64,000 nt of DNA from Candidatus Latescibacterota bacterium (GTDB taxonomy: Bacteria; Latescibacterota; UBA2968; GCA-2709665). This document shows positions 1 through 12,928 of this stretch, piece after piece (the stretch's first letter is position 1; the number at the start of each line of letters is the position of its first letter). The position numbers and the translations under genes were made by a program. The notes under the pieces were generated by a model that saw only the letters and a program-made list of their open reading frames with translations, searched no databases and was not told where the DNA came from. The DNA is taken from the NCBI GenBank assembly GCA_965222075.1, contig OZ244937.1, positions 1,056,001-1,120,000 of the forward strand. The letters run 5' to 3'.

Positions 1-774
1 TTTATCAAAAATGGCAATTTCGTCTATCTTGCCAGTGTACTTGTAGTGGTTTAACCGGACAACCTGATCCGCCATATCCCAGGTTATGTCCTGGCGGAGG
101 CCTGACTTGCGGCCCTTTTCAACGCCGTTGATGAAGAAGGCCCATTCGGCATTGGCCGCGCTGCTGTTGAAATTTTTCCACGTAATGACGATGTGGTGCC
201 ACTCGTCTGATTTCCAGTTAAGATTTTCCACGCGGATGACCCGCTGGTTGACCATCTCATCGGAAACTTCCCGGGTCTTGTTTGGATAGCACCCGAATCG
301 GAGCGCGCGCGGGGGTCTGGTAAAATCGACAAAGATAACAGCATCGTCCCAGGGGTAGGCGTTGTCTTGCTTTTTTCCGATGTGGAAGGGTTCGGGATAG
401 TTGGCCTCCAGATCGCGGGAAGGATCAACGCTCAACCAGAAGGAGACGGCGCCGGACCAGGCTTTGCTGTTGTTGTAGGGAAAGTTGCCTTTGGCCCCGT
501 AACTGAGGGTGCTGGCACCTCCTTCAAAGGACAGGCAGCCGTCGATTTTGCCGCCGCTGGCCTCACGCTGGGGAGGGTTGGCCGTTTCAAGCACGGCGAG
601 GTCGGGGCCTGCGCAGGAGAGCGCATCAAACCCTTTTTCAAAATTCGAAAAGAAAAGGACATGGTCCAGCAGGCTTGCTTCAATCTTTCTCTCCTGTCCA
701 CCGCAGCCCAGCATCAGGGTGAGAAGGACCAGGGCGGTGGAACCGATGACCGTGGGGGAGAAACGCCATTTCAT
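1..774 (-). CDS. LamG/concanavalin A-like domain lipoprotein (3'-truncated by window edge; absent from ORF track)
   Basis: Manual translation from ATG at 774 (RBS AAGGAG upstream) stays open to position 1. It reads MKWRFSPTVIGSTALVLLTLMLGC (lipobox) ... WHHIVITWKNF ... WAFFINGVE ... YTGKIDEIAIFDK, typical LamG-like jellyroll motifs. Confidence 0.85.
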   Translation of the reverse strand, partial: MKWRFSPTVIGSTALVLLTLMLGCGGQERKIEASLLDHVLFFSNFEKGFDALSCAGPDLAVLETANPPQREASGGKIDGCLSFEGGASTLSYGAKGNFPYNNSKAWSGAVSFWLSVDPSRDLEANYPEPFHIGKKQDNAYPWDDAVIFVDFTRPPRALRFGCYPNKTREVSDEMVNQRVIRVENLNWKSDEWHHIVITWKNFNSSAANAEWAFFINGVEKGRKSGLRQDITWDMADQVVRLNHYKYTGKIDEIAIFDK

Positions 775-1170: not shown

Positions 1171-4100
1171 ATGCTGCGTAGAATCGGCAGTGTGGTTCTC
1201 TGGTTAATTGTCCTTTTTATGCTCGCTTCGGTCACCATCTGGAATCCCGGAGAGGTTACGGACAAGTTTGTTGAGTGGTTTAATATTAAGCCCAGTGTGC
1301 CCGAAGAGAGGCCGGTGATTATCTCGGAGCGTGACCGGGAGATTCGGGAGGCTGCAGAGTCGATCTCTGCGTCGGACCTTCGGGAGACGGTGGCAGCGCT
1401 TTCGGGTATGGGATCCCGGGTGCCGGGCTATCCGGGCCACAAAGAGGCCTTTGAATACGTCAAGGCACAGTTTGAGCAGATCGGCCTGGAGGACATTCAG
1501 GTAGAGGAATTCCAGGTCACGGTCCCCGTCGATAAGGGCGCCTCTCTAAAGATTACCGAAACCGGGAAAGAGATCGGGATTTATTGCCTGTGGCCCAATC
1601 ACGTTCGGCCGCCGTCCCTGCCCAGGGGGGGGATTAAGGGGAAGCTCATTTACGGGGGGAAGGGGTCGTTCAAAGAGCTGAATTGGAAGCCGGTTGACAA
1701 AAGCGTTGTCCTGATGGAGTTTGACTGCGATCAGAACTACCTCAACCCGCGGATGCTGGGTGCGAAGGCAATTCTCTTTTACGACAACGGACGGGTCAGC
1801 CGGGGGCAGGCGATGGATAAATTCCTGCAGGTGCCGGTGGATGTGCCAAGGTTCTGGGTGGAAAAAGCGGAGGTTGGGCGCTTGATGGCGTTGGCCAGGT
1901 CGGGCAAACAAGAGGTGATGCTGAAGGCCAGGATGGACTGGGAGAAGGTACCTGCCTGGAATATCTACGGCACCCTGCCCGGCGTGGATGCGTATATTAC
2001 CAAGCGTCAGGAGCGGAAGTGGAAGGACGAGATCGTTCTGCTTTCCGGTTTCTACGACGCCGTCTCGGTGGTTCCCGCGCTGGCGCCGGGGGCAGAAAAC
2101 GCCACGGGGATGGCGGCGCTGCTGGAAACGGCCAAGGCGCTGAAGCGCAATCCGCCCAAGTATACGGTGATGGTTATGGCCAATGGAGCGCATTTTCAGG
2201 GCCTGGCAGGCGTCAACGACTTTCTGTACCGGCACTCCCGCGAGAGCGAGCATTTCCGAGAACTTATCCCGGAGGACCAGAAGATCGATTTTCGGCTCTT
2301 TATCGGGTTCGACCTGTCCAGCGAATTCGACCAGGTCGCCAGTTTTTCACATGCGACTTTCTACAATTCGACATGGAGGACCAACAACTACGAGAACAAC
2401 CTCTTGGCGCCCTATGCGGACAAGTTTGACGGTTACCTGCCCAAGATCTTTCCCAACGAGGAACGCCACATAGACGCGATTGCGCCGCCCAAGCGGACCT
2501 GGAAGAATTTTATGCCCATCCGCCTGGGGTTTGACAGCGAGGCGGTCAAATTTGTTGGGAAGGAGGGCATCACGCTGGCCACGCCTTCCACCGTCCGGCA
2601 GCGGGTGGATACGCCTGTGGACCGGCTGGAATATGTCAATTTCTCGAATCTGACCCGACAGGTTCAAACGTCGGTCGGCATACTCTTGAAGGCCGTAGAA
2701 GACCCCGAATTTTTCCGCGTATCCAAGCTCAAGTTGCAGGATCTGGGGCACTCCTTGGAAGGGCGCATCCTCTGGTGGGAGCGGGATGTGGACTTTGCCA
2801 TTCCCCGGGTGCCCGTGCCGGGAGCCGTGGTGACCTACCAGCAGCCGGGTCCGGTGCCCAGCTGCGCTGGGGTGCGCACGCTGATTGTCGATAAGACCAC
2901 AGCAGGGCCTTCTTATAAGGGCAACCCGTCTCAAGGCTCGGCATATGGCTCCAAGGATGTGGTGGCAAAGACCGGCCGTTTCAAGTTTGATATTATGCGG
3001 AATCGTTTTTCCAACCAGATCCTGGCTTATCAGTTAGACGACGAGGGGCGGATCGTTTCGGCGCCCGATCTGGGCAACGAAGGCGATAAGAAATTCCCCA
3101 CCACCCAGGGCTACGGCTGGTGGGAGAATGAGACGATGGAGGTGCTGTTTAAATGCCGGTCAATCAGTGTGTTTGAAATTATCGATTCGAGCTACCTCTC
3201 GGCGCTCGACTATATGACGGTATTTAACGAGGGCGATACCCAGCCCTTAGAGTTCGGCCACTACTACATCAAGGATCAAAGCATCAAAGAGGGGGATGTG
3301 ACCCGGGCGGCGGTGGCTTTTGCTGCGCTGGATCCGACGACGGGCAAATCGGAGCATTTGAAGATTTTGATGAGTACCGGCCTGTTCGGGGTGAAGTATC
3401 TGTTGATCAACGCTTCTGAAGAATACTTAGATCATCCTGTTAACAAGCAGGATGTGGACGTGAAGCTCTTAGAGCAGTCGCGCGGGATTGGATATCCGTC
3501 GGGGGTGATTTTCAACCCTTCCTACAAGGCGGCCAAAGATATGTGGGTCATCGACGATATCCGCATGAAGCAGCTGGCCCAGTACGGGATCAAAAATACC
3601 CGGCTGTCAATGCTGCACAAGGCGGCCCGCGAGGCCCTGCTGGAGGCGAAGGAGCACCATGCCAACCGCAACTACGAAGCCTATATGGCGGCATCTCGGC
3701 AGGCCTGGGGGCTGGAGGCGAGGGGGTATCCGGAGGTGATGGCCACGGCCAACGACACGGTTCGAGGCATTATCTTTTACTTTATGCTGTTGCTGCCCTT
3801 TTCTTTCTTCTGTGAACGCCTGATTTTCGGCTTCCCCGACATCACGCGACGGCTGGTCGGATTTGCAGGGATCTTTGTTTTGTTCTTCATCATCCTCCGG
3901 TATGTACATCCGGCGTTTAAGCTGAGCAGTTCGCCTTATATCATCTTCCTGGCGTTCGTGATTCTGGCCTTAGGCGCGATTGCCATGTTTATTGTGGTCT
4001 CCAAATTCGGGGAAGAGGTCCGGAAGATGAAGCAGGCGTCGGCAGGCACGTACGAAGCGGATGTGGGACGGCTTTCCGCCACGTCGGCGGCGATTGTCCT

Positions 4101-5922
4101 GGGGATTTCCAATTTGCGCAAGCGCCCGCTGCGCACCGGTCTGACGGCGGTGACCCTGACCCTGCTTACGTTTACCGCGCTTTCGTTTACGTCGGTGCAA
4201 ACGTCGATCAAGTTCTACCGGCTGCCGCGAGACAACAAACCGACTTATCAGGGGGGGCTGGTGCGAGATCGGGCCTGGCGGGGCCTGCAGGAGTCTGTAC
4301 TGGAGTACCTGACGAGCGCGTTTGAGGGCCGGGCTTCGATTGTGCCCCGCGCCTGGTACCTCTCCCAGGTTCGGGGCGAGCGGGCCTATGTGAACTTTAC
4401 GCGCATCACCGAGCAGAAGGCCAACCTGGGATCTCGGGATACCTACATCGATTTCGATGTGGGCCTGACCTCGGGGAAGGACAGCTTTGTCAATGGCCTG
4501 CTGGGCCTGACGTCTGATGAGCCGGCCATTACCGGGGTGGACCACTTTTTGATGAGGGGGCGCTGGTTCCAGCCGGGAGAGGAACACGTCTGTATTCTGC
4601 CCAACGACTTGGCAGAGCTGGTGGGGATCTTCCCCGAAGATGTCGGAGAGGCGAAGGTCGAGATGCTGGGGCGCACCTTTACGGTAATCGGTATCTTAGA
4701 CTCGGAGTCTTTTAACAAGTACAAGGATATGGACGACGAGAAGCTGACGCCGGTGGATACGGTGTCGGAGAAGGACGACCTGTCCGATGCGCAGGACCAG
4801 GACCCCCGGGTTGTGGCGGCCGCGCCGATTGAGTCCTTCACCCACCTGGAATCGACGAATGTGATGCTTGTGCCCTACCAGTTCGTGCGCGACATCGGGG
4901 GGGCGCTGAGTTCGATTGCAATTGCCAACTTCACCGATGACCAGGGCGTGCCCAAGGAGAACTTCGTCCCCGATATCGAGGATTTTATGACCCGGGTTTC
5001 GCTGACCATGTTTGTGGGATACGGCGAGGATGTGACGGTCTACAGTTCGATCGGGTCCACAGCGCTGTCGGGGCTGGGCGCCCTCTTTATCCCGATCCTG
5101 ATCGCGGCCCTGATCGTGCTGAATACGATGATGGGGGCGGTGTACGAGCGTTTCCAGGAGATCGGGATCTACTCCGCCGTCGGGCTGGCGCCCAACCACA
5201 TTGCAGCGCTGTTTTTGGCGGAGGCGGCTGTGTTTGCCACGGTGGGGGCCGTGTTTGGGTACCTCATCGGGCAGGTGCTGGTTCTGGGGCTGTACGAACA
5301 GGGGGTGCTGGGCGGTCTGGAGTTGAACTATTCCTCGCTTTCGGCCATTTCCGCCACCCTTATCGTGATGGCTACGGTGTTCCTCTCAACGCTTTATCCG
5401 GCAAAAAAGGCGGCCGATATGGCCGTGCCCGACGTGACCCGAAAGTGGGAGTTCCCCGAACCGGAGGGCGACCGGTGGGTCTTCGACTTTCCGTTTACCG
5501 TGGGCGGCGCCGAGGTGCTGGGAATGTACACCTATCTCACCCGGGTGTTCGAGTCTTACGGGGAGGGGTCCGTGGGGGACTTTGTGGCCGACAACGTCCG
5601 GTTTACCTCTCAAGACCTGCACGGCGAACCGCAATATGAGATTTACCTGACGACCTGGCTGGCGCCCTACGACCTGGGCATCAGTCAGAACGTAGAGTTG
5701 AAGGCCATTCCGACCGGGGAGCACAACATCTACAAGATCGAGGTGGTGATCAACCGGCTGAGCGGCGATGTGGCTTCCTGGAAACGGATCAACCGTGGCT
5801 TTTTGAACGTGCTCCGAAAACGGTTCCTGGTCTGGCGCACCATTCCGCCTGAAATCAAACACCAGTATGCCGGGGAAGGACAGCAGATCCTCCAGGGAGA
5901 AGTCCAGGAGACGACGACGTAG
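1171..5922 (+). CDS. Large membrane protein: M28/PA peptidase-fold extracytoplasmic domain fused to MacB/FtsX-type ABC permease
   Basis: N-terminal TM. M28-like motifs GSRVPGYPGH, VLLSGFYD, APGAENATGMAALLE. Three-TM block near aa 870-945. MacB TM1 SNLRKRPLRTGLT, periplasmic RGRWF...FTVIGIL, FtsX VLNTMMGAVYERFQEIGIYSAVG. Confidence 0.85.
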   Translation: MLRRIGSVVLWLIVLFMLASVTIWNPGEVTDKFVEWFNIKPSVPEERPVIISERDREIREAAESISASDLRETVAALSGMGSRVPGYPGHKEAFEYVKAQFEQIGLEDIQVEEFQVTVPVDKGASLKITETGKEIGIYCLWPNHVRPPSLPRGGIKGKLIYGGKGSFKELNWKPVDKSVVLMEFDCDQNYLNPRMLGAKAILFYDNGRVSRGQAMDKFLQVPVDVPRFWVEKAEVGRLMALARSGKQEVMLKARMDWEKVPAWNIYGTLPGVDAYITKRQERKWKDEIVLLSGFYDAVSVVPALAPGAENATGMAALLETAKALKRNPPKYTVMVMANGAHFQGLAGVNDFLYRHSRESEHFRELIPEDQKIDFRLFIGFDLSSEFDQVASFSHATFYNSTWRTNNYENNLLAPYADKFDGYLPKIFPNEERHIDAIAPPKRTWKNFMPIRLGFDSEAVKFVGKEGITLATPSTVRQRVDTPVDRLEYVNFSNLTRQVQTSVGILLKAVEDPEFFRVSKLKLQDLGHSLEGRILWWERDVDFAIPRVPVPGAVVTYQQPGPVPSCAGVRTLIVDKTTAGPSYKGNPSQGSAYGSKDVVAKTGRFKFDIMRNRFSNQILAYQLDDEGRIVSAPDLGNEGDKKFPTTQGYGWWENETMEVLFKCRSISVFEIIDSSYLSALDYMTVFNEGDTQPLEFGHYYIKDQSIKEGDVTRAAVAFAALDPTTGKSEHLKILMSTGLFGVKYLLINASEEYLDHPVNKQDVDVKLLEQSRGIGYPSGVIFNPSYKAAKDMWVIDDIRMKQLAQYGIKNTRLSMLHKAAREALLEAKEHHANRNYEAYMAASRQAWGLEARGYPEVMATANDTVRGIIFYFMLLLPFSFFCERLIFGFPDITRRLVGFAGIFVLFFIILRYVHPAFKLSSSPYIIFLAFVILALGAIAMFIVVSKFGEEVRKMKQASAGTYEADVGRLSATSAAIVLGISNLRKRPLRTGLTAVTLTLLTFTALSFTSVQTSIKFYRLPRDNKPTYQGGLVRDRAWRGLQESVLEYLTSAFEGRASIVPRAWYLSQVRGERAYVNFTRITEQKANLGSRDTYIDFDVGLTSGKDSFVNGLLGLTSDEPAITGVDHFLMRGRWFQPGEEHVCILPNDLAELVGIFPEDVGEAKVEMLGRTFTVIGILDSESFNKYKDMDDEKLTPVDTVSEKDDLSDAQDQDPRVVAAAPIESFTHLESTNVMLVPYQFVRDIGGALSSIAIANFTDDQGVPKENFVPDIEDFMTRVSLTMFVGYGEDVTVYSSIGSTALSGLGALFIPILIAALIVLNTMMGAVYERFQEIGIYSAVGLAPNHIAALFLAEAAVFATVGAVFGYLIGQVLVLGLYEQGVLGGLELNYSSLSAISATLIVMATVFLSTLYPAKKAADMAVPDVTRKWEFPEPEGDRWVFDFPFTVGGAEVLGMYTYLTRVFESYGEGSVGDFVADNVRFTSQDLHGEPQYEIYLTTWLAPYDLGISQNVELKAIPTGEHNIYKIEVVINRLSGDVASWKRINRGFLNVLRKRFLVWRTIPPEIKHQYAGEGQQILQGEVQETTT

Positions 5923-5950
5923 AAGAGATTTCGGAATAAGGAGGGGAGAA

Positions 5951-7999
5951 TTGGCGACCGAACCGAAAGATGGTGAACAAGAAGATATAGCGCAATACGA
6001 ATCCATTATGCCGGAGGACGCGCCCTTCGAAGATGGGTTTAACGTGAAGACCATCTGGGCGACCCTGTTTGTGGGGATCGTGATGCTGCCCGGGGCGATC
6101 TACCTGGGGCTGGTCACCGGGCAGAGCATGGCGGGCGCATCGGAGTGGGTGACCATTATCCTCTTTTTGGAGATCGCCAAGCGGTCTTTTGTGCGGCTTA
6201 AGACCCAGGAGCTGATTGTCATCTACTGGGTGGCCGGTGGTCTTTTGGGGTTGGGAGCCCGGCTGGGGAGTGGGGCGCATATGTACGGGGGCCCCTTTGG
6301 GGGGCTGATCTGGGACCAGTATTTGATCCAGTCTCCGGCGGCCAAGGGTCTGGCCAAGTATATTCCAGACTGGGTGGTTCCGCCGCTGGATACGCCGGTT
6401 TACGTTGAGCGGACGTTTGTCCACAGCGCGTGGATCAAGCCGGTCCTGATCCTTTTCACGGTGATGGTGATCCTCAGAACCGCCCACCTCGCGTTCGGCT
6501 ATATCATGTTCCGGGTGACGAACGACATCGAAAAGCTGCCCTTTCCGCTGGCGCCGGTACAGGCGAGGGGCGCCACGGCACTGGCCGAGAGCTCGGCCAA
6601 GCAGGAGGGGTGGCGCTGGCGGGTGTTCAGCACGGGGACCTGCATCGGTCTGATCTGGGGGCTTTTGTATGTGGTGGTGCCAACGATGTCGAGCATCTTC
6701 CTGACGGACACGGTACAGATCCTGCCGATCCCGTTCATCGACTTTACCGCGGAGATCAAGACGATCCTGCCCACGGCGATCTTCGGGCTGGGGACCGACC
6801 TTGCGCACCTGCTCATCGGATTCGTGCTGCCGTTCTACGTTGTCATCGGGTCGTTTGCCGGGGCCATCATCAGCAACCTGGTGATCAATCCCTTGCTGCT
6901 CTACAAGATCGGCGTCCTGCAGCGCTGGTCGCCGGGCATGACGGCCATCCCGGCCAGCATCTCCAACCGGTTCGACTTCTGGCTGAGCTTCGGAATCGGG
7001 ACGGCGCTGGTGATCGCACTTACCGGGTTCTACATCGTGGGCAAGGCCCTCTTGGAGCAGCGCCGGAAGGTGCGGGAGACGGGACACCAGACGATGGGGG
7101 TAGGCCTGGAAGATCTGCCCGAGGGGCGGGGCGATCTGAAGATGCTCTATCCGATTTTGCTGTGGGCGGTGGCGACGGTAGGATTCATCGCCATGTGCCG
7201 GGTGCTGGTGCCGGAGTTCCACTGGGGGTGGCTGATTTTCTTCGGGTTTATCTACTCGCCGCTCACCTCCTATATCGGGGCGCGCATGATCGGGCTGACG
7301 GGCAATCCTTATGGTGCGGGCATCCCCTACATCCGGGAGGCGGCCATCTTCCTGTCGGGGTACAAAGGCGCGGATATCTGGTTTGCGCCGCTGCCTCTGC
7401 ACAACTACGGGACGGCGGTGCCGGCCTTCAAGCAGCTGGAACTGACAAAGACGAAGTTTGTAAGCTACGTAAAGCTGACGATTCTGACTACGTTCGTCAT
7501 CTTTATCTGCAGCTTTGTCTTCTGGGAGTTCATCTGGAGGCTGGGGCCGATCCCGTCGTCCACCTATCCCTACGTGCAGATGTTCTGGCCGTTTGAGGCG
7601 ACGATGCAGACGATGTGGATCAAGTCGACACTGCCGCCAGAAGAGGTTCAGGGGGCTGTCGGGTTGGAGCTGCTGCTGGATATCGTGAAGTTCGATTACG
7701 TTGCTGCCGGATTTGTCGCAGGGCTGGCGATCTATATTATTCTGTCTGCGCTGAAGGCGCCGATATTGATTTTCTTCGGATTTGTTCAGGGGTTGAACTG
7801 GTGGCCGCACTTCGTGATCCTCCAATTTGCGGGAGCGTTGCTGGGCCGTTACTATTTTGCCAGGCGTTTTGGGGAGTCAAAGTGGCAGGCTTACGCGCCG
7901 ATCCTGCTGGCTGGATATTCCTGCGGAATGGGGCTGATCGCGATGACCTCGATTGCCGTGGCCCTGATATCCAAGGCCGTTTCGCAGGTGGTTTTCTAA
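5951..7999 (+). CDS. OPT (oligopeptide transporter)-like multi-pass membrane protein
   Basis: TTG start after AAGGAGGGGAG. About 15 hydrophobic segments. Motifs PGAIYLGLVTG, LKTQELIVI and EKLPFPLAPV resemble OPT/YSL family signatures. Confidence 0.7.
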   Translation: MATEPKDGEQEDIAQYESIMPEDAPFEDGFNVKTIWATLFVGIVMLPGAIYLGLVTGQSMAGASEWVTIILFLEIAKRSFVRLKTQELIVIYWVAGGLLGLGARLGSGAHMYGGPFGGLIWDQYLIQSPAAKGLAKYIPDWVVPPLDTPVYVERTFVHSAWIKPVLILFTVMVILRTAHLAFGYIMFRVTNDIEKLPFPLAPVQARGATALAESSAKQEGWRWRVFSTGTCIGLIWGLLYVVVPTMSSIFLTDTVQILPIPFIDFTAEIKTILPTAIFGLGTDLAHLLIGFVLPFYVVIGSFAGAIISNLVINPLLLYKIGVLQRWSPGMTAIPASISNRFDFWLSFGIGTALVIALTGFYIVGKALLEQRRKVRETGHQTMGVGLEDLPEGRGDLKMLYPILLWAVATVGFIAMCRVLVPEFHWGWLIFFGFIYSPLTSYIGARMIGLTGNPYGAGIPYIREAAIFLSGYKGADIWFAPLPLHNYGTAVPAFKQLELTKTKFVSYVKLTILTTFVIFICSFVFWEFIWRLGPIPSSTYPYVQMFWPFEATMQTMWIKSTLPPEEVQGAVGLELLLDIVKFDYVAAGFVAGLAIYIILSALKAPILIFFGFVQGLNWWPHFVILQFAGALLGRYYFARRFGESKWQAYAPILLAGYSCGMGLIAMTSIAVALISKAVSQVVF

Positions 8000-8059
8000 G
8001 TCACGAGGACTCGTGACCGGGGTGGGGTGTGGGAAGGGTAGGACGCATAGGGGAACTTT

Positions 8060-8117
8060 TGCCCGGGTGGGGATCGTCTAAGTCATACGACCAACTTACC
8101 CGGGCAGCTTCTTTTTT
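8060..8117 (+). terminator. Probable intrinsic terminator after the M28-FtsX/OPT unit
   Basis: TGCCCGGGTGGG (8060-8071) pairs with CTTACCCGGGCA (8095-8106), with inner TCGT/ACGA, followed by GCTTCTTTTTT. Confidence 0.55.
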
Positions 8118-8164: not shown

Positions 8165-8623
8165 ATGAGGGGGGCAGCAAGAACAGGATGTTTCGTGGTG
8201 GCAATCGGTTTGATCGCATCGCTGTCGTTAGAGGCACAGCCTCAGGGCGGTGGGCGGGGTGGGTGGGGTGGGCGCGTCGGGATGATGGCTGCGCGTTTTA
8301 TCCCGGTGGAACAGACGCTGGGGTTCCTGGCCTTTGACGAGAAGATCGGGCTGGCCGACGATCAGCTCCTCAAGGTTCGAAAAGAACTGAAAACGGTTCA
8401 CAAGAAACGGGCCGAGCTTATGCAGGAGATGCAGGGAGGGCAAAGGGACCGTCAGGCAATGATGGAGAAGGTCCGGGGGCTTCGCGGAGAGATGCTGGAG
8501 AAGCTCACAGGCATTTTAAATGCCGAGCAGAACAAGGTGCTGGCAGAATACATGGAAAGGATGCAGAATCGGCGGAGACGGGGTGGTGGGCGTCAGGGGG
8601 GTGGAGGGGGTGAGAGGCTGTAG
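8165..8623 (+). CDS. Secreted alpha-helical protein, Spy/CpxP-like
   Basis: RBS TAAGGAGG, signal peptide ending LEA-Q, LTXXQ-like motifs (LADDQ, LNAEQ), Gly/Arg-rich ends. Confidence 0.65.
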   Translation: MRGAARTGCFVVAIGLIASLSLEAQPQGGGRGGWGGRVGMMAARFIPVEQTLGFLAFDEKIGLADDQLLKVRKELKTVHKKRAELMQEMQGGQRDRQAMMEKVRGLRGEMLEKLTGILNAEQNKVLAEYMERMQNRRRRGGGRQGGGGGERL

Positions 8624-8695
8624 GTCCTTTCCCCTGCGAAAGAAACCGCGTCGTCGGGAACACCGGCGCCGCCAGCTTGTATGGGGATTTTCCTG

Positions 8696-8724
8696 TTGAC
8701 AGATGAATTCAGCCGAATTACCTT
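8696..8724 (+). promoter_or_regulatory. Sigma70-type promoter
   Basis: TTGACA-17 nt-TACCTT upstream of the metallophosphoesterase gene. Confidence 0.5.
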
Positions 8725-8776
8725 GGTTCCGGAGGTTTCAAGCGGTTACAAAAGGAGGTGTGCAAGAAGAGGCGGG

Positions 8777-10156
8777 ATGGATTTTCATCACGTTCTGAGC
8801 CAGGTCGAGCGTCCGTTTACGTTTGCGGTGGTGGGGGATACCCACTTTACGCTGCCGGAGTTCTCTCCAGATCCAGACGGGAGGAGGACCGCTCTCAGGC
8901 CACTGGATGTTGACCAATACGTCGAGAATGTGGCCTATGTCCTCTCTCCGATGATGGATGCTCTGAAGGCGGAGGCGCCGGCTTTTGTTGTGATGACGGG
9001 AGACCTGGTGGAGGGGCATGGAGACCCGGGGCGGGCGGAAATACAGGCGGGGCTGGATTTCTTCGATTCTTATGGTCTCCCGCTGTTGCTTGCCCGGGGA
9101 AACCACGACCGGGTAGAGGCGTTCGGTGAGGTCGTCCAGCCTTATCTTTCCCGGGTGCTGGGGAGGGAGCTGGAGGAGGGGCACTATTTCACAGATGTGG
9201 CCGGATGTCAGCTTGTGGTCTTAGATAGCACCACCTGGAAGCATGGAGGGGAACAGCATCGTTGGCTGGAGGATTTGCTGAAACAGAGCCGGAATATCGA
9301 CATTGATCGGACGTTCCTGTTTGGACACCACCCCATCTGGCCGGTGGCCCGGGCATTTTTTACCAATCTCGATTTTTGTCGGGATATGCCCGAACTCCTG
9401 GAACGGTATCCGGTGGATGCTTTTTTCTGCGGCCATACTCACAACCAGAGTATTATTATGCATCGGACCGGAAGGCAACCGGTCCTTCAGTTTATGGGGG
9501 CGCCGATCGGGTTGCCCGAGGAAATCCCAACGCCCTTAGACCGGGTGCAGGCGTTGCTCCCCCCCCCAGACGATTTGTTGACCTGCTGGCCGGGCTACCT
9601 TGAGAATACGGCGCCGGGGTGGTTTACGGTACGGGTGGGCAGGCAGTCGGTGAGGGTTGAGTGGCACCATCTGAATCGGGGAGCCGAAACCACGGTCCGG
9701 TGGCGTCGCCGGGGAGATCTTACCGCTTTTCGTGAGATGACGTACCCACCGGATGCACGGCTGATTTACAGTGACCTGAACCATATCCGAAGGGCCTGTT
9801 TGAGGTTTTGCGCCTGGGATGCCATACAGCCTGGAAAACGCGTTGTTCTAAACGGAAAAGAGATCGGCGTTTTGCCCCCGGGGAACGCGTTCGCCCCCGG
9901 CAGAATGGAACTGCCGGCGTGGGCGCTGGGCGGGCTCCGAATGGAGAACCGGATTGAGATTCAGGCTCCCGAAGATGAGGCGAGCACGGTGGGCAATCTG
10001 GTGCTGGAGGCCGTGCTGCCGGGTGGACGCTTCGTGCGCACACGTCCCACAGGGGAGATTTTTACCTGGTCCGATCGGTGGGATGCCTGGCGGCTGAGAA
10101 CGCTGCAGAAGGTGGCGCCGGGCAGATCGATTGTGACGCTGCTTTCGTTCTGGTAA
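8777..10156 (+). CDS. Calcineurin-like metallophosphoesterase with C-terminal extra domain
   Basis: Motifs GDTH, TGDLV, GNHD, GHHP, GHTH. ATG at 8777 preferred over 8681. Confidence 0.85.
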   Translation: MDFHHVLSQVERPFTFAVVGDTHFTLPEFSPDPDGRRTALRPLDVDQYVENVAYVLSPMMDALKAEAPAFVVMTGDLVEGHGDPGRAEIQAGLDFFDSYGLPLLLARGNHDRVEAFGEVVQPYLSRVLGRELEEGHYFTDVAGCQLVVLDSTTWKHGGEQHRWLEDLLKQSRNIDIDRTFLFGHHPIWPVARAFFTNLDFCRDMPELLERYPVDAFFCGHTHNQSIIMHRTGRQPVLQFMGAPIGLPEEIPTPLDRVQALLPPPDDLLTCWPGYLENTAPGWFTVRVGRQSVRVEWHHLNRGAETTVRWRRRGDLTAFREMTYPPDARLIYSDLNHIRRACLRFCAWDAIQPGKRVVLNGKEIGVLPPGNAFAPGRMELPAWALGGLRMENRIEIQAPEDEASTVGNLVLEAVLPGGRFVRTRPTGEIFTWSDRWDAWRLRTLQKVAPGRSIVTLLSFW

Positions 10157-10207
10157 GGGCAGATGTGAAACGACGAATTGTACTTAGTAAGGGAGACATA
10201 GAACGCG

Positions 10208-12310
10208 ATGCGTAAAGCGCAATTCACCAACCGCCTGACCCACGAGACAAGCCCCTACCTGTTGCAACATGCCCACAATCCGGTGGACTGGTATGCCTGG
10301 GGAGAAGAGGCGCTGGAGGTGGCCCGCAAAGAAGACAAGCCGATCTTTCTGAGCATCGGGTATTCGGCCTGTCACTGGTGCCATGTGATGGAGCACGAAT
10401 CGTTTGAGAGCGAAGCGATTGCGGCAATCATGAACGCGCACTTTGTGAATATCAAGGTCGATCGGGAAGAACGGCCCGACCTGGACGAGATTTACATGAA
10501 CGCCGTGCAGATGATGACGGGGTCGGGCGGCTGGCCGATGAGCGTTTTTTTGACGCCGGAGGGGGTGCCGTTTTACGGCGGGACGTATTTTCCTCCCGAG
10601 AGCCAATACGGCCGTCCGGGGTTTCGTGAGGTCCTGCTGGCCGTATCGCGACACTATCGGGCAAACCGGGAGAAGGTTGGGGAGACGGGCGGCAGGCTGA
10701 TGGAGGGGTTGCAGCGGCTTGCCCGGTTGCAGACCACGGAAGGGGAGTTGGATGCAAACCTGCCATCGGCGGCCTTTTCACGGATTGCCCGGAATTTTGA
10801 CGCGAGGAACGGAGGGTTTGGCTCTCAACCGAAATTTCCGAATACGATGAACCTGTCGGTTTTTCTCCGGGAATTCGCACGAACGGAAACCCCGCAAGCG
10901 CTGGATATGGTGAAACTGACGCTGGAGAAGATGGCACGCGGGGGGATTTACGATCAGCTTGGGGGCGGGTTCCACCGCTATTCGGTCGATGACCGGTGGC
11001 TGGTGCCCCACTTTGAGAAGATGCTCTACGACAACGCTTTGCTCGCGAAGCTCTACCTGGAGGCCTACCAGGCAACCGGCAACCCCTTCCTGCAACGGAT
11101 TGTGCGGGAGACCCTGGCCTATGTGATGCGGGAGATGACCGATCCGGAAGGGGGGTTTTACTCAACGCAGGATGCCGACAGCGAGGGGGAAGAGGGGAAG
11201 TTTTTCGTTTGGGACCCAGAAGAGGTCGAAGCCCTGATGGGAGTGGAGGATGCGCCCCTCTTTTGCCGATACTTCGGCGTCAGCCCGGAAGGAAACTTCG
11301 AACACGGCAAGAGCATCCTGAACGTATCGGTCGACTTAGAGGACCTGGCAAAGTTTCTGAAGGTAGACGAACAGAGGCTGGCCGATGCCGTTGAACGGGG
11401 GCGGAAGGCGCTGTTCGAGGCGCGAGAAAAACGGGTAAAGCCCGGACGGGACGAGAAGATCCAGGTAAACTGGAACGGACTGATGATTTCGGCGTTTGCC
11501 GCGGCCTACCAGACGCTGCGGGAACCGGCCTACCTGCAAACGGCCGAGCAGGCGGCCCGGTTTATCCTGGACCGGATGCGGACCGGGGAGGGGTACCTCC
11601 TGCATACCTATAAGGATGGACGGGCGCGTTTTACGGGGTACCAGGACGATTATGCCTTCCTGATCAACGCCTCAGTCGATCTCTACGGGGCGACGTTTGA
11701 CCTGGCATGGCTGAAGGCGGCGCAGGGGTTGGCCGAGCTTATGGTCGAACAATTCTGGGACGACGCAGAGGGGGGGTTCTTCTTCATTGGCAGGGACCAC
11801 GAGGAATTGATCGTCCGGTCGAAGAACCCTTACGACAACGCCATTCCTTCCGGGAATTCCGTCGGCGCGATGGCGTTGATGCGGTTGGGGACCATTCTGG
11901 GTCGAAAGGATTTCTGTGAGAAGGCCGAGCGGACGCTGAGGCTGTTTCAGCCGTTCATGCGCGAGATGCCGTCGGGATTTGGGCAGATGGTTTGTGCGCT
12001 TGATTTCTTTCTCCAGCGTCCCGTGGAGGTGGTCATTGTAGGGCCGCTGCAGGCTGACGAGACACAGGGCCTTTTGGCGGCGGTGCGGAAGCGGTGGCTG
12101 CCAAACCACGTGGTGACGCTTTGCGACTTGGAAGGGGACGGTGAGGCCCTGGAGATGATTCCCCAACTGCCCGGCAAGAAACAGGTGGATGGAAGGCCCA
12201 CGGCCTATGTGTGCCGGGATTTGACCTGTTCTGCCCCGGTCACGGAGATCAGTGCGCTGGAGGCGCTGTTGGAAGACAGGGGTCGGGGGTCGGGAGTCGG
12301 GGGGCGGTAG
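10208..12310 (+). CDS. yyaL: Thioredoxin-domain protein, YyaL/SSP411 family
   Basis: [53 protein letters not shown]. Confidence 0.92.
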
Positions 12311-12330
12311 GAGCGACCGACCGGTCGCCC
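12307..12330 (+). repeat. GTAG-type REP-like palindrome
   Basis: GTAGGAGCGACCGACCGGTCGCCC has a GTAG foot plus a GCGACC/GGTCGC stem, the same design as the units at 26755-26819. Its TAG is the yyaL stop codon. Confidence 0.55.
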
Positions 12331-12379
12331 GTTGTGATCGCCATTGTTCAATAACCCATTTATAAGACAGGAGGTCAGG

Positions 12380-12928
12380 ATGGCGGATGTCCTTATCGTT
12401 GGCGACGGCCCAGGGGGGTTGAGCGCTGCGTTGTTTTTGGCCAAGAATGCGGTGGATGTTACGGTTTTGGGTCAGGATACCACGCCTGTGCACAAGGCAA
12501 TGTTCTACAACTACCTGGGCATTCCGAAGATGACCGGAAGTGAGTTTCAGAAAATCGGTCGTGAACAGGTCAAAAGTTTCGGAGCCGAGATCCACGATGT
12601 GAAGGTCAGCGCCACGGAAAAGACCGAGGGCGGCTTTGCGGTTACCACCGTGGGGGGAGATCGTCATGAGGGGAAATACCTGATCCTCGCGACGGGGACC
12701 AACGTGCAACTCGCGCAAAGTCTGGGCCTGACAAAGGGAAAAGACGGACTTGAGGTAGACCGGGATGGCCGGACTTCCGTTGAAGGGCTTTATGCGTTGG
12801 GCTGGAGTACGCGGCTAAAAAAAACCCAGGCGATTATCTCGGCCGGTCAGGGAGCTGCCACGGCGCTGGATATTCTCTCTACAGAGACCGGAGAAGAGGG
12901 GTTTCACGATTTCGACGTTGTGGAATAA
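12380..12928 (+). CDS. Short FAD-dependent oxidoreductase (thioredoxin reductase-like, FAD domain only)
   Basis: DVLIVGDGPGGLSAAL, LILATG, TSVEGLYALG, QAIISAGQGA. RBS AGGAGG. Confidence 0.8.
   Translation: MADVLIVGDGPGGLSAALFLAKNAVDVTVLGQDTTPVHKAMFYNYLGIPKMTGSEFQKIGREQVKSFGAEIHDVKVSATEKTEGGFAVTTVGGDRHEGKYLILATGTNVQLAQSLGLTKGKDGLEVDRDGRTSVEGLYALGWSTRLKKTQAIISAGQGAATALDILSTETGEEGFHDFDVVE

Follow-up and report, generated by a model that had tools for sequence, protein, structure and literature searches.

Two adjacent genes in a 64,000-nucleotide stretch of a Candidatus Latescibacterota genome (contig OZ244937.1, positions 1,056,001 to 1,120,000, forward strand; the whole stretch is called the window) encode a 1583-residue type VII ATP-binding cassette (ABC) permease subunit, called the giant here, and a 682-residue carrier with the OPT/YSL fold, called P2. 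Their folds, copy numbers, co-occurrence, operons and gene fusions, together with the loss of an aspartate pair in the carriers and of zinc ligands in the giant, make it somewhat probable in our judgment that a shared ATP-driven motor works exchangeable elevator carriers, with a logic resembling that of energy-coupling factor (ECF) transporters; complex formation, force transfer, import direction and substrates are proposed. We hold tentatively the broader view that this is a new class of primary active importer, in which a type VII ABC motor would drive the elevator stroke of exchangeable OPT-fold carriers that no longer couple to protons, with up to ~46 substrate-specific subunits per motor. 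In Latescibacterota and other poorly cultured groups, it would be the principal way across the inner membrane for what TonB-dependent receptors deliver. We read the window locus as a core module of the system.

The giant is encoded by a verified open reading frame (ORF) at 1171–5922 (+), and P2 by a second ORF at 5951–7999 (+) with a TTG start, 28 nucleotides after the stop of the giant; a sequence identical to the 682-residue P2 is already in the records as P0003. ORFs, Pfam and hydropathy bore out the original prediction, made from the DNA alone, of an M28/PA and MacB/FtsX fusion beside a 682-residue protein. Hydropathy gives eight segments in the giant, namely one at the N-terminus, three at residues ~863–946, one at ~991–1009 and three at 1293–1411. 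Pfam places Peptidase_M28 (282–416) and FtsX (1305–1416) above the cut-off, and MacB_PCD (1105–1199) weakly and below it. The MacB/FtsX module (4135–5418, +) has the four FtsX helices, the first two separated by the outer core domain. Helix 2 is followed by an intact coupling helix, which aligns with YtrF and MacB and is the most conserved stretch of the giant; residues 1301–1350 are 76–90% identical across the paralogues, of which the window genome has eight. The best solved-structure matches of the module are YtrF (E = 4e-10), MacB (2e-8) and LolC (1e-4).

The remainder of the giant comprises an N-terminal membrane anchor (residues ~4–22; 1180–1236, +; hydropathy), replaced by a different N-terminus in fused relatives, an M28/PA aminopeptidase-fold head with a remodelled site (~50–520; 1318–2730, +; Pfam and profile alignments), an outer region without a family match (~521–862; 2731–3756, +), three conserved extra membrane helices (863–946; 3757–4008, +; hydropathy and identity profile) and a cytoplasmic tail of ~160 residues from no known family (5428–5919, +). 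By the identity profile, the outer region is the most variable part among the paralogues, and conserved helices at its end enter the membrane. The tail has 16 residues invariant across 47 sequences and a charge bias that agrees with its cytoplasmic placement; an Atlas search with it gave no usable match. The extra helices show no detectable likeness to the C-terminal helices of FtsX, and a comparison gave no support for reading the giant as a duplicated permease whose first FtsX repeat has decayed (hhalign 0.2% and 0.6%).

By sequence profile, the head has the M28 fold (2EK8, E = 2e-17), and PA matches were found in 5 of 7 giant paralogues. The positions H97, E151 and E152 of Vibrio aminopeptidase, which with D117 we take to be its zinc and catalytic ligands, align with F294, H341 and F342 of the giant, and D117 falls on a gap, so that the equivalents of all four are lost; the last zinc His was located by motif only. 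Among 47 family members the first zinc His is kept in one and the Glu-Glu pair in none; H341, D296, R476 and D484 never vary, and D381 and D480 rarely do. The invariance of H341 and of several Asp and Arg residues suggests that the site was remodelled rather than eroded. As judged from its sequence, the head is a pseudo-peptidase without the normal zinc ligands.

The only ABC ATPase match in the window lies ~22 kb from the pair and is 33% identical to the cognate ATPase. As one option of the original prediction had it, the cognate ATPase is encoded elsewhere. The LolD/MacB-type ATPase (76%; G000:C1:3202888-3203613), in which all six ATPase motifs are intact, adjoins the sole small FtsX of the genome (G000:C1:3202102-3202794), a partner of ~230 residues almost without an outer domain, 2.1 Mb from the window pair. 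We infer that these two pair with this particular giant. In three relatives the kit forms one operon: the run in L079 and L080 is DUF6785, TPR, giant, P2, a 293-residue protein, PqqD-like, small FtsX and ATPase, and L077 has the same kit without DUF6785, giant to ATPase together. The 300-residue-type protein measures 293–323 residues in these three. In the window genome the orthologues are scattered rather than in one run. The PqqD-like and 300-residue genes (G000:C1:738182-741582), adjacent in relatives, are separated here by ~2 kb with an opposite-strand ORF. A second ATPase (62%; G000:C1:2641580-2642443), near another giant–P2 locus, may serve one sub-clade; its distribution does not perfectly follow the P2 clade with an inserted domain. 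The system is larger than the two genes of the window: the small FtsX, the PqqD-like protein, the 300-residue protein and DUF6785/6784 also belong to it.

Homologues of the pair co-localise, as the original prediction required. The giant is present in 59 of the 67 loci found via P2; among the 39 closest (70–89%) it lies upstream in 38, and the remaining one has no upstream DNA. The divergence of the giant correlates with that of the adjacent P2 (r = 0.91 over 23 pairs; 2000 shuffles of the labels reached at most 0.41), and the paralogues of one genome flank the deepest split in both trees, which indicates that giant and P2 were duplicated as a unit. In L039–L058 and L067, P2 stands directly behind a cluster of ORFs that by eye resemble ExbB/ExbD and TPR genes, and DUF6785 and the giant come ~4 kb further on.

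Six parts (small FtsX, ATPase clade, 300-residue protein, P2, giant and DUF6785) were profiled in 27 genomes, namely the window genome and 26 relatives picked from 60, with all eight negatives taken. All six were found in the same 19 genomes and were undetected in the other eight, all of family f9 and 90–97% complete. A wider sample of 61 genomes yielded the giant in 53; none of 14 control genomes had DUF6785, and parts of the kit also occur in Armatimonadia and Planctomycetes records.

The copy numbers are markedly uneven. The window genome has one small FtsX, one 300-residue protein, two ATPases, three P2, eight giants and 46 DUF6785/6784. Across the 19 genomes the small FtsX and the 300-residue protein occur exactly once each, and the ATPase once or twice, the best copy adjoining the small FtsX in every case; P2 has 1–5 genes per genome (split matches merged by hand), and DUF6785 matches number 1–47. 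A 99% complete genome (G003) has one giant, one P2, one ATPase and 21 DUF6785 matches. The giant counts, for which at most eight candidates were scored, and the DUF6785 counts in three genomes are lower bounds.

P2 has no match in Pfam or NCBIfam. The window P2 does not reach the cut-off of PF03169 (OPT), which one of seven scanned relatives matches (P0215, E = 9e-12) and which is marked in precomputed annotation of 8 of 120 close relatives; searches of solved-structure sequences with P2 or its alignment gave no match. A model built from a 140-sequence alignment reached a predicted local distance difference test (pLDDT) score of 90.6 and a predicted template-modelling score of 0.91, compared with a pLDDT of only 40 for a single-sequence model. 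It matched barley YS1 alone (Foldseek E = 2e-11), with Z = 21.7 over 548 aligned residues, a root-mean-square deviation of 3.9 and 14% identity (runner-up Z = 4.9), and the predicted core-plus-scaffold fold of YS1 extends over the whole P2 chain. Against 13 ordinary bacterial OPTs the P2 profile scored 97.4% (E = 1e-11, hhalign). These results support the assignment of P2 to the OPT/YSL fold, which the original prediction had anticipated. Many P2 relatives carry an insert of ~130–370 residues after residue 564, which is a Reg_prop propeller in L077 (L077:4838-7717); P0147 has PDZ domains, and a further example is L072:4369-6789.

Barley YS1 works as a dimer and is an elevator carrier driven by protons; the D490N and D494N mutations impair HvYS1 transport (PMC9691689). 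Positions were anchored through the 7WSR alignment and then by profile alignments. In P2, remote profile alignment places T488 and A492 (7412–7426, +) at D490 and D494, neither of them Asp. These places hold Asp in 13 of 13 ordinary OPTs, and in 0 and 1, respectively, of 140 P2-family rows; a neighbouring Lys/Arg anchors the mapping in 135 of the 140. YS1 D446 is uninformative, because ordinary bacterial OPTs also have Gly there. Of 81 genomes in the phylum, 15 have ordinary OPTs; in the genome and the order to which the window belongs, none reached the threshold.

DUF6785 and P2 are remote homologues (hhalign 97.6%, E = 4e-12, 560 columns). The 46 full copies are diverse (median identity 33%), and 39 of them lie more than 10 kb from any giant. 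Their tree resolves clades, one with the carriers beside three of the giants, but does not match carriers to giants one by one. At the D490/D494 places none of the 46 has Asp or Glu, by a two-step and weaker mapping. Segments around the presumed substrate site are somewhat less conserved (0.24–0.34) than several scaffold and loop segments (0.43–0.49), a weak hint in the alignment of diversified pockets. Three partial DUF6785/6784 copies (G000:C1:1590525-1590923, 3376191-3376523 and 4427399-4428055) are probably remnants of duplication.

In three genomes of one family, the giant and a DUF6785/6784 carrier are fused into single proteins of 2094–2215 residues, 49–56% identical to one another and with no stops or Ns, in which the tail of the giant runs via a short linker into the N-terminus of the carrier. 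A fourth candidate (a 2213-residue frame) proved to be two genes that share a frame and are separated by a stop. In L137 (G065:C155) the giant and P2 share one reading frame with a single TGA between them, one step from fusion.

Among 147 same-strand ORFs neighbouring DUF6785 (two DUF genes left out, giant-linked loci scanned separately), 79 have a Pfam match. These include Gfo/Idh/MocA (7), the homocysteine-S-methyltransferase family (7), PhyH (6), DegT (4), xylose-isomerase-like (3) and TonB-receptor-like proteins (3), sulfatases (2), gamma-glutamyltranspeptidases (2) and S15 hydrolases (2), with a lyase, a glycosidase, a dehydratase and an amidase seen once each. TonB-receptor-like genes lie within 10 kb of DUF6785 in 14 of 32 cases (expected 4.7; local shifts 7.9, p = 0.001), and homocysteine-S-methyltransferase family genes in 14 of 23 (expected 3.5; local shifts 7.7, p = 0.001). 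These neighbours suggest uptake of varied small solutes of many kinds rather than peptides, towards which the original prediction had leaned. The window genome has 23 strong matches to the homocysteine S-methyltransferase family, concentrated near DUF6785, and 89 to Gfo/Idh/MocA, so both families are greatly expanded. L117 (9182-15668) has a DUF6785 gene on either side of an ordinary ABC importer of the oligopeptide type, with two SBP_bac_5 and two permeases.

In the mechanism that we propose, the giant, the single small FtsX and the adjacent ATPase as a dimer would form a LolCDE-like heterodimeric motor. The carrier would be an OPT/YSL-fold elevator, with P2 as the constant subunit co-evolving with the giant and DUF6785/6784 as the variable subunit, one per catabolic cassette. 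One-copy operons with one P2 and one DUF6785 suggest a YS1-like mixed dimer, which within this model we slightly favour. ATP-driven movement of the FtsX helices would set off the elevator stroke in place of proton binding, with the force carried by the extra helices or by the cytoplasmic tail, and the dead-peptidase head may be a periplasmic capture or gating domain. Substrates may include sugars, sugar acids, amino sugars, sulfated or methylated compounds and amides, often delivered by TonB-dependent receptors. A complex prediction of P2 (24–676) with pieces of the giant (862–946, 1300–1560) scored 0.01 and was used neither way.

Several observations weigh against this reading. No giant was seen in 8 of the 67 P2 loci, several of them short, and one of the eight giants has no adjacent carrier (L073). 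Related genomes do not supply independent gene pairs, and kinship inflates the correlation of 0.91; likewise, the eight negative genomes form one family and would represent one loss, and the three fusions probably stem from one event. The aspartate mapping rests on profile alignments at 17–18% identity, the 13 ordinary OPTs are related sequences from one phylum, and the direct match of DUF6785 to them is weak (16%, E = 0.002). As for the neighbours, 68 of the 147 ORFs have no Pfam match, DegT (9 of 25) and Gfo/Idh/MocA (20 of 89) are not enriched relative to local shifts, and the four families in the shift test were picked after being seen. To our knowledge, type VII ABC systems extrude, extract or signal, and none imports. 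Finally, 26 of the 46 DUF6785 have His at the D494 place and other acidic columns are kept, so a proton path remains conceivable.

That last point bears on an explanation that we regard as unlikely yet the most serious of the others, in which the ABC part gates, senses or assembles carriers run by an ion gradient or facilitated diffusion, like a BceAB-type sensor or a nicalin-type helper in the assembly of membrane proteins. It is compatible with the same co-occurrence, fusions and one-to-many copy numbers; the conserved His could accept a proton, and the head profile also matches nicalin (E = 2e-6) and the transferrin receptor (E = 7e-5), with a non-significant match to nicastrin (E = 1.6). 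However, the aspartate pair retained by ordinary OPTs is missing from both carrier families, ordinary OPTs are confined to 15 of the 81 phylum genomes whereas the kit is in most, and eight giant paralogues exceed the needs of a general assembly helper.

It is improbable, in our view, that the system instead serves export or the envelope in the manner of Lol and FtsEX, extracting or exporting a product that is lipid-linked or a peptide, while the PqqD-like protein reads a leader peptide. Two unlike FtsX subunits with a LolD-type ATPase do resemble LolCDE, a PqqD-family protein belongs to the operon, and the type VII systems known to us act outwards. The carriers, however, sit by catabolic enzymes and TonB-receptor-like genes, not by biosynthetic or precursor genes, and the range of 1 to 47 DUF6785 matches per genome also argues against export. 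Moreover, the OPT family is described as comprising uptake transporters in the part of a family survey available to us (PMC3061005).

The invariant polar residues of the head would suit a remodelled hydrolase, switched on by ATP in the manner of FtsEX and trimming periplasmic oligomers for the adjacent carrier. Against this, the first zinc His and the Glu-Glu pair are gone from 46 and all of the 47 sequences, respectively, and a single conserved site is ill suited to the many substrates implied by the neighbours; we consider this very unlikely. That the window pair works without an ATPase, an option in the original prediction, is scarcely credible: no cognate ATPase is in the window or in any of the 67 P2 loci, two of which held only an unrelated ABC ATPase at 35%, but the giant is best conserved in its coupling helix, and a dedicated ATPase clade accompanies the small FtsX in all 19 system genomes, in the same operon in three.

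A ribosome-binding-site-like AAGGAGG (5938–5944, +) precedes the TTG start of P2. Downstream, a hairpin of 13 pairs (8059–8107) and a U run (8109–8117) together span 8059–8117 (+). The hairpin of the original prediction is present; its role as the terminator of the two-gene unit, read from the sequence, is plausible and not proven. The terminator scan missed it, and folding gives z = -3.7 on a hand-chosen 63-nucleotide stretch and z = -0.23 on 111 nucleotides. A perfect TTGACA at 1033–1038, followed by an A/T-rich stretch, lies ~130 nucleotides 5' of the giant and was not called by the promoter scan, which saw no second hexamer that fits. Upstream, a divergent Laminin_G_3 protein is encoded at 1–774 (-). 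The genes downstream, at 8165–12928 (+), encode a small protein of helical type, a metallophosphoesterase and a protein with a thioredoxin domain; genes like these surround the pair in several close relatives. The window locus has no DUF6785 and no telling neighbour genes. The nearest relatives are in Latescibacterota records, and P2 is one of three paralogues in the genome. RNA contigs from four runs of one sponge study cover both genes patchily and at low depth, and among the matches listed (32 of 76) no RNA piece spans the giant–P2 junction with 31 letters on each side.

If the proposal is true, a MacB-type ABC system would for the first time count among the importers, and the fold of a secondary carrier would have turned ATP-driven. 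The proposal would also assign a role to DUF6785/6784, of which genomes hold dozens of copies, and explain how the many substrates of these bacteria pass the inner membrane. The small operons of L079 and L080 have every part once, which makes the idea testable. In the literature searched, with subscription journals, TCDB entries and supplements outside the search, we found no description of the system, in agreement with the original view that the two classes were not known as a characterised complex, and no paper on DUF6785. The available part of the OPT family survey mentions ABC once, merely to separate the families (PMC3061005).

Among known systems, the type VII ABC systems (LolCDE, MacB, YtrEF, FtsEX) share with the giant the FtsX helices, outer core domain and coupling helix, and with the present system a LolD/MacB-type ATPase and, in LolCDE, two unlike permease subunits. 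Unlike them, the giant adds an 840-residue outer part headed by the pseudo-peptidase, three extra helices and a cytoplasmic tail; the partner subunit has only ~230 residues, with up to eight giants per small subunit; and the link to OPT-fold carriers is constant, even extending to fusion, with import probable. Of the OPT/YSL carriers (TC 2.A.67; HvYS1, PDB 7WSR/7WST), P2 has the whole predicted fold and a profile match, but it falls under the Pfam OPT threshold, lacks the D490/D494 pair and always occurs alongside an ABC motor. Nicalin, nicastrin and the transferrin receptor likewise have an M28-fold outer domain without the catalytic set, whereas those proteins are eukaryotic and single-pass or nearly so, and here the head is joined to an ABC permease.

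In group II ECF transporters, a common ATPase module serves many scattered substrate-specific membrane subunits. The present system would resemble them by analogy in genome organisation only, with one energising module and many unlinked subunits; the motor is of type VII rather than EcfAA'T, the subunit is an OPT-fold protein of 650–700 residues rather than a 6-helix S-component, and homology is not expected. In KdpFABC, a carrier or channel fold was captured by an ATPase of another superfamily. That system, in contrast, combines a P-type ATPase with a potassium-transporter fold and has a single substrate and no modular expansion. Overall, the system described here unites known folds in a combination absent from the literature searched, and it would be categorically new if the coupling holds.

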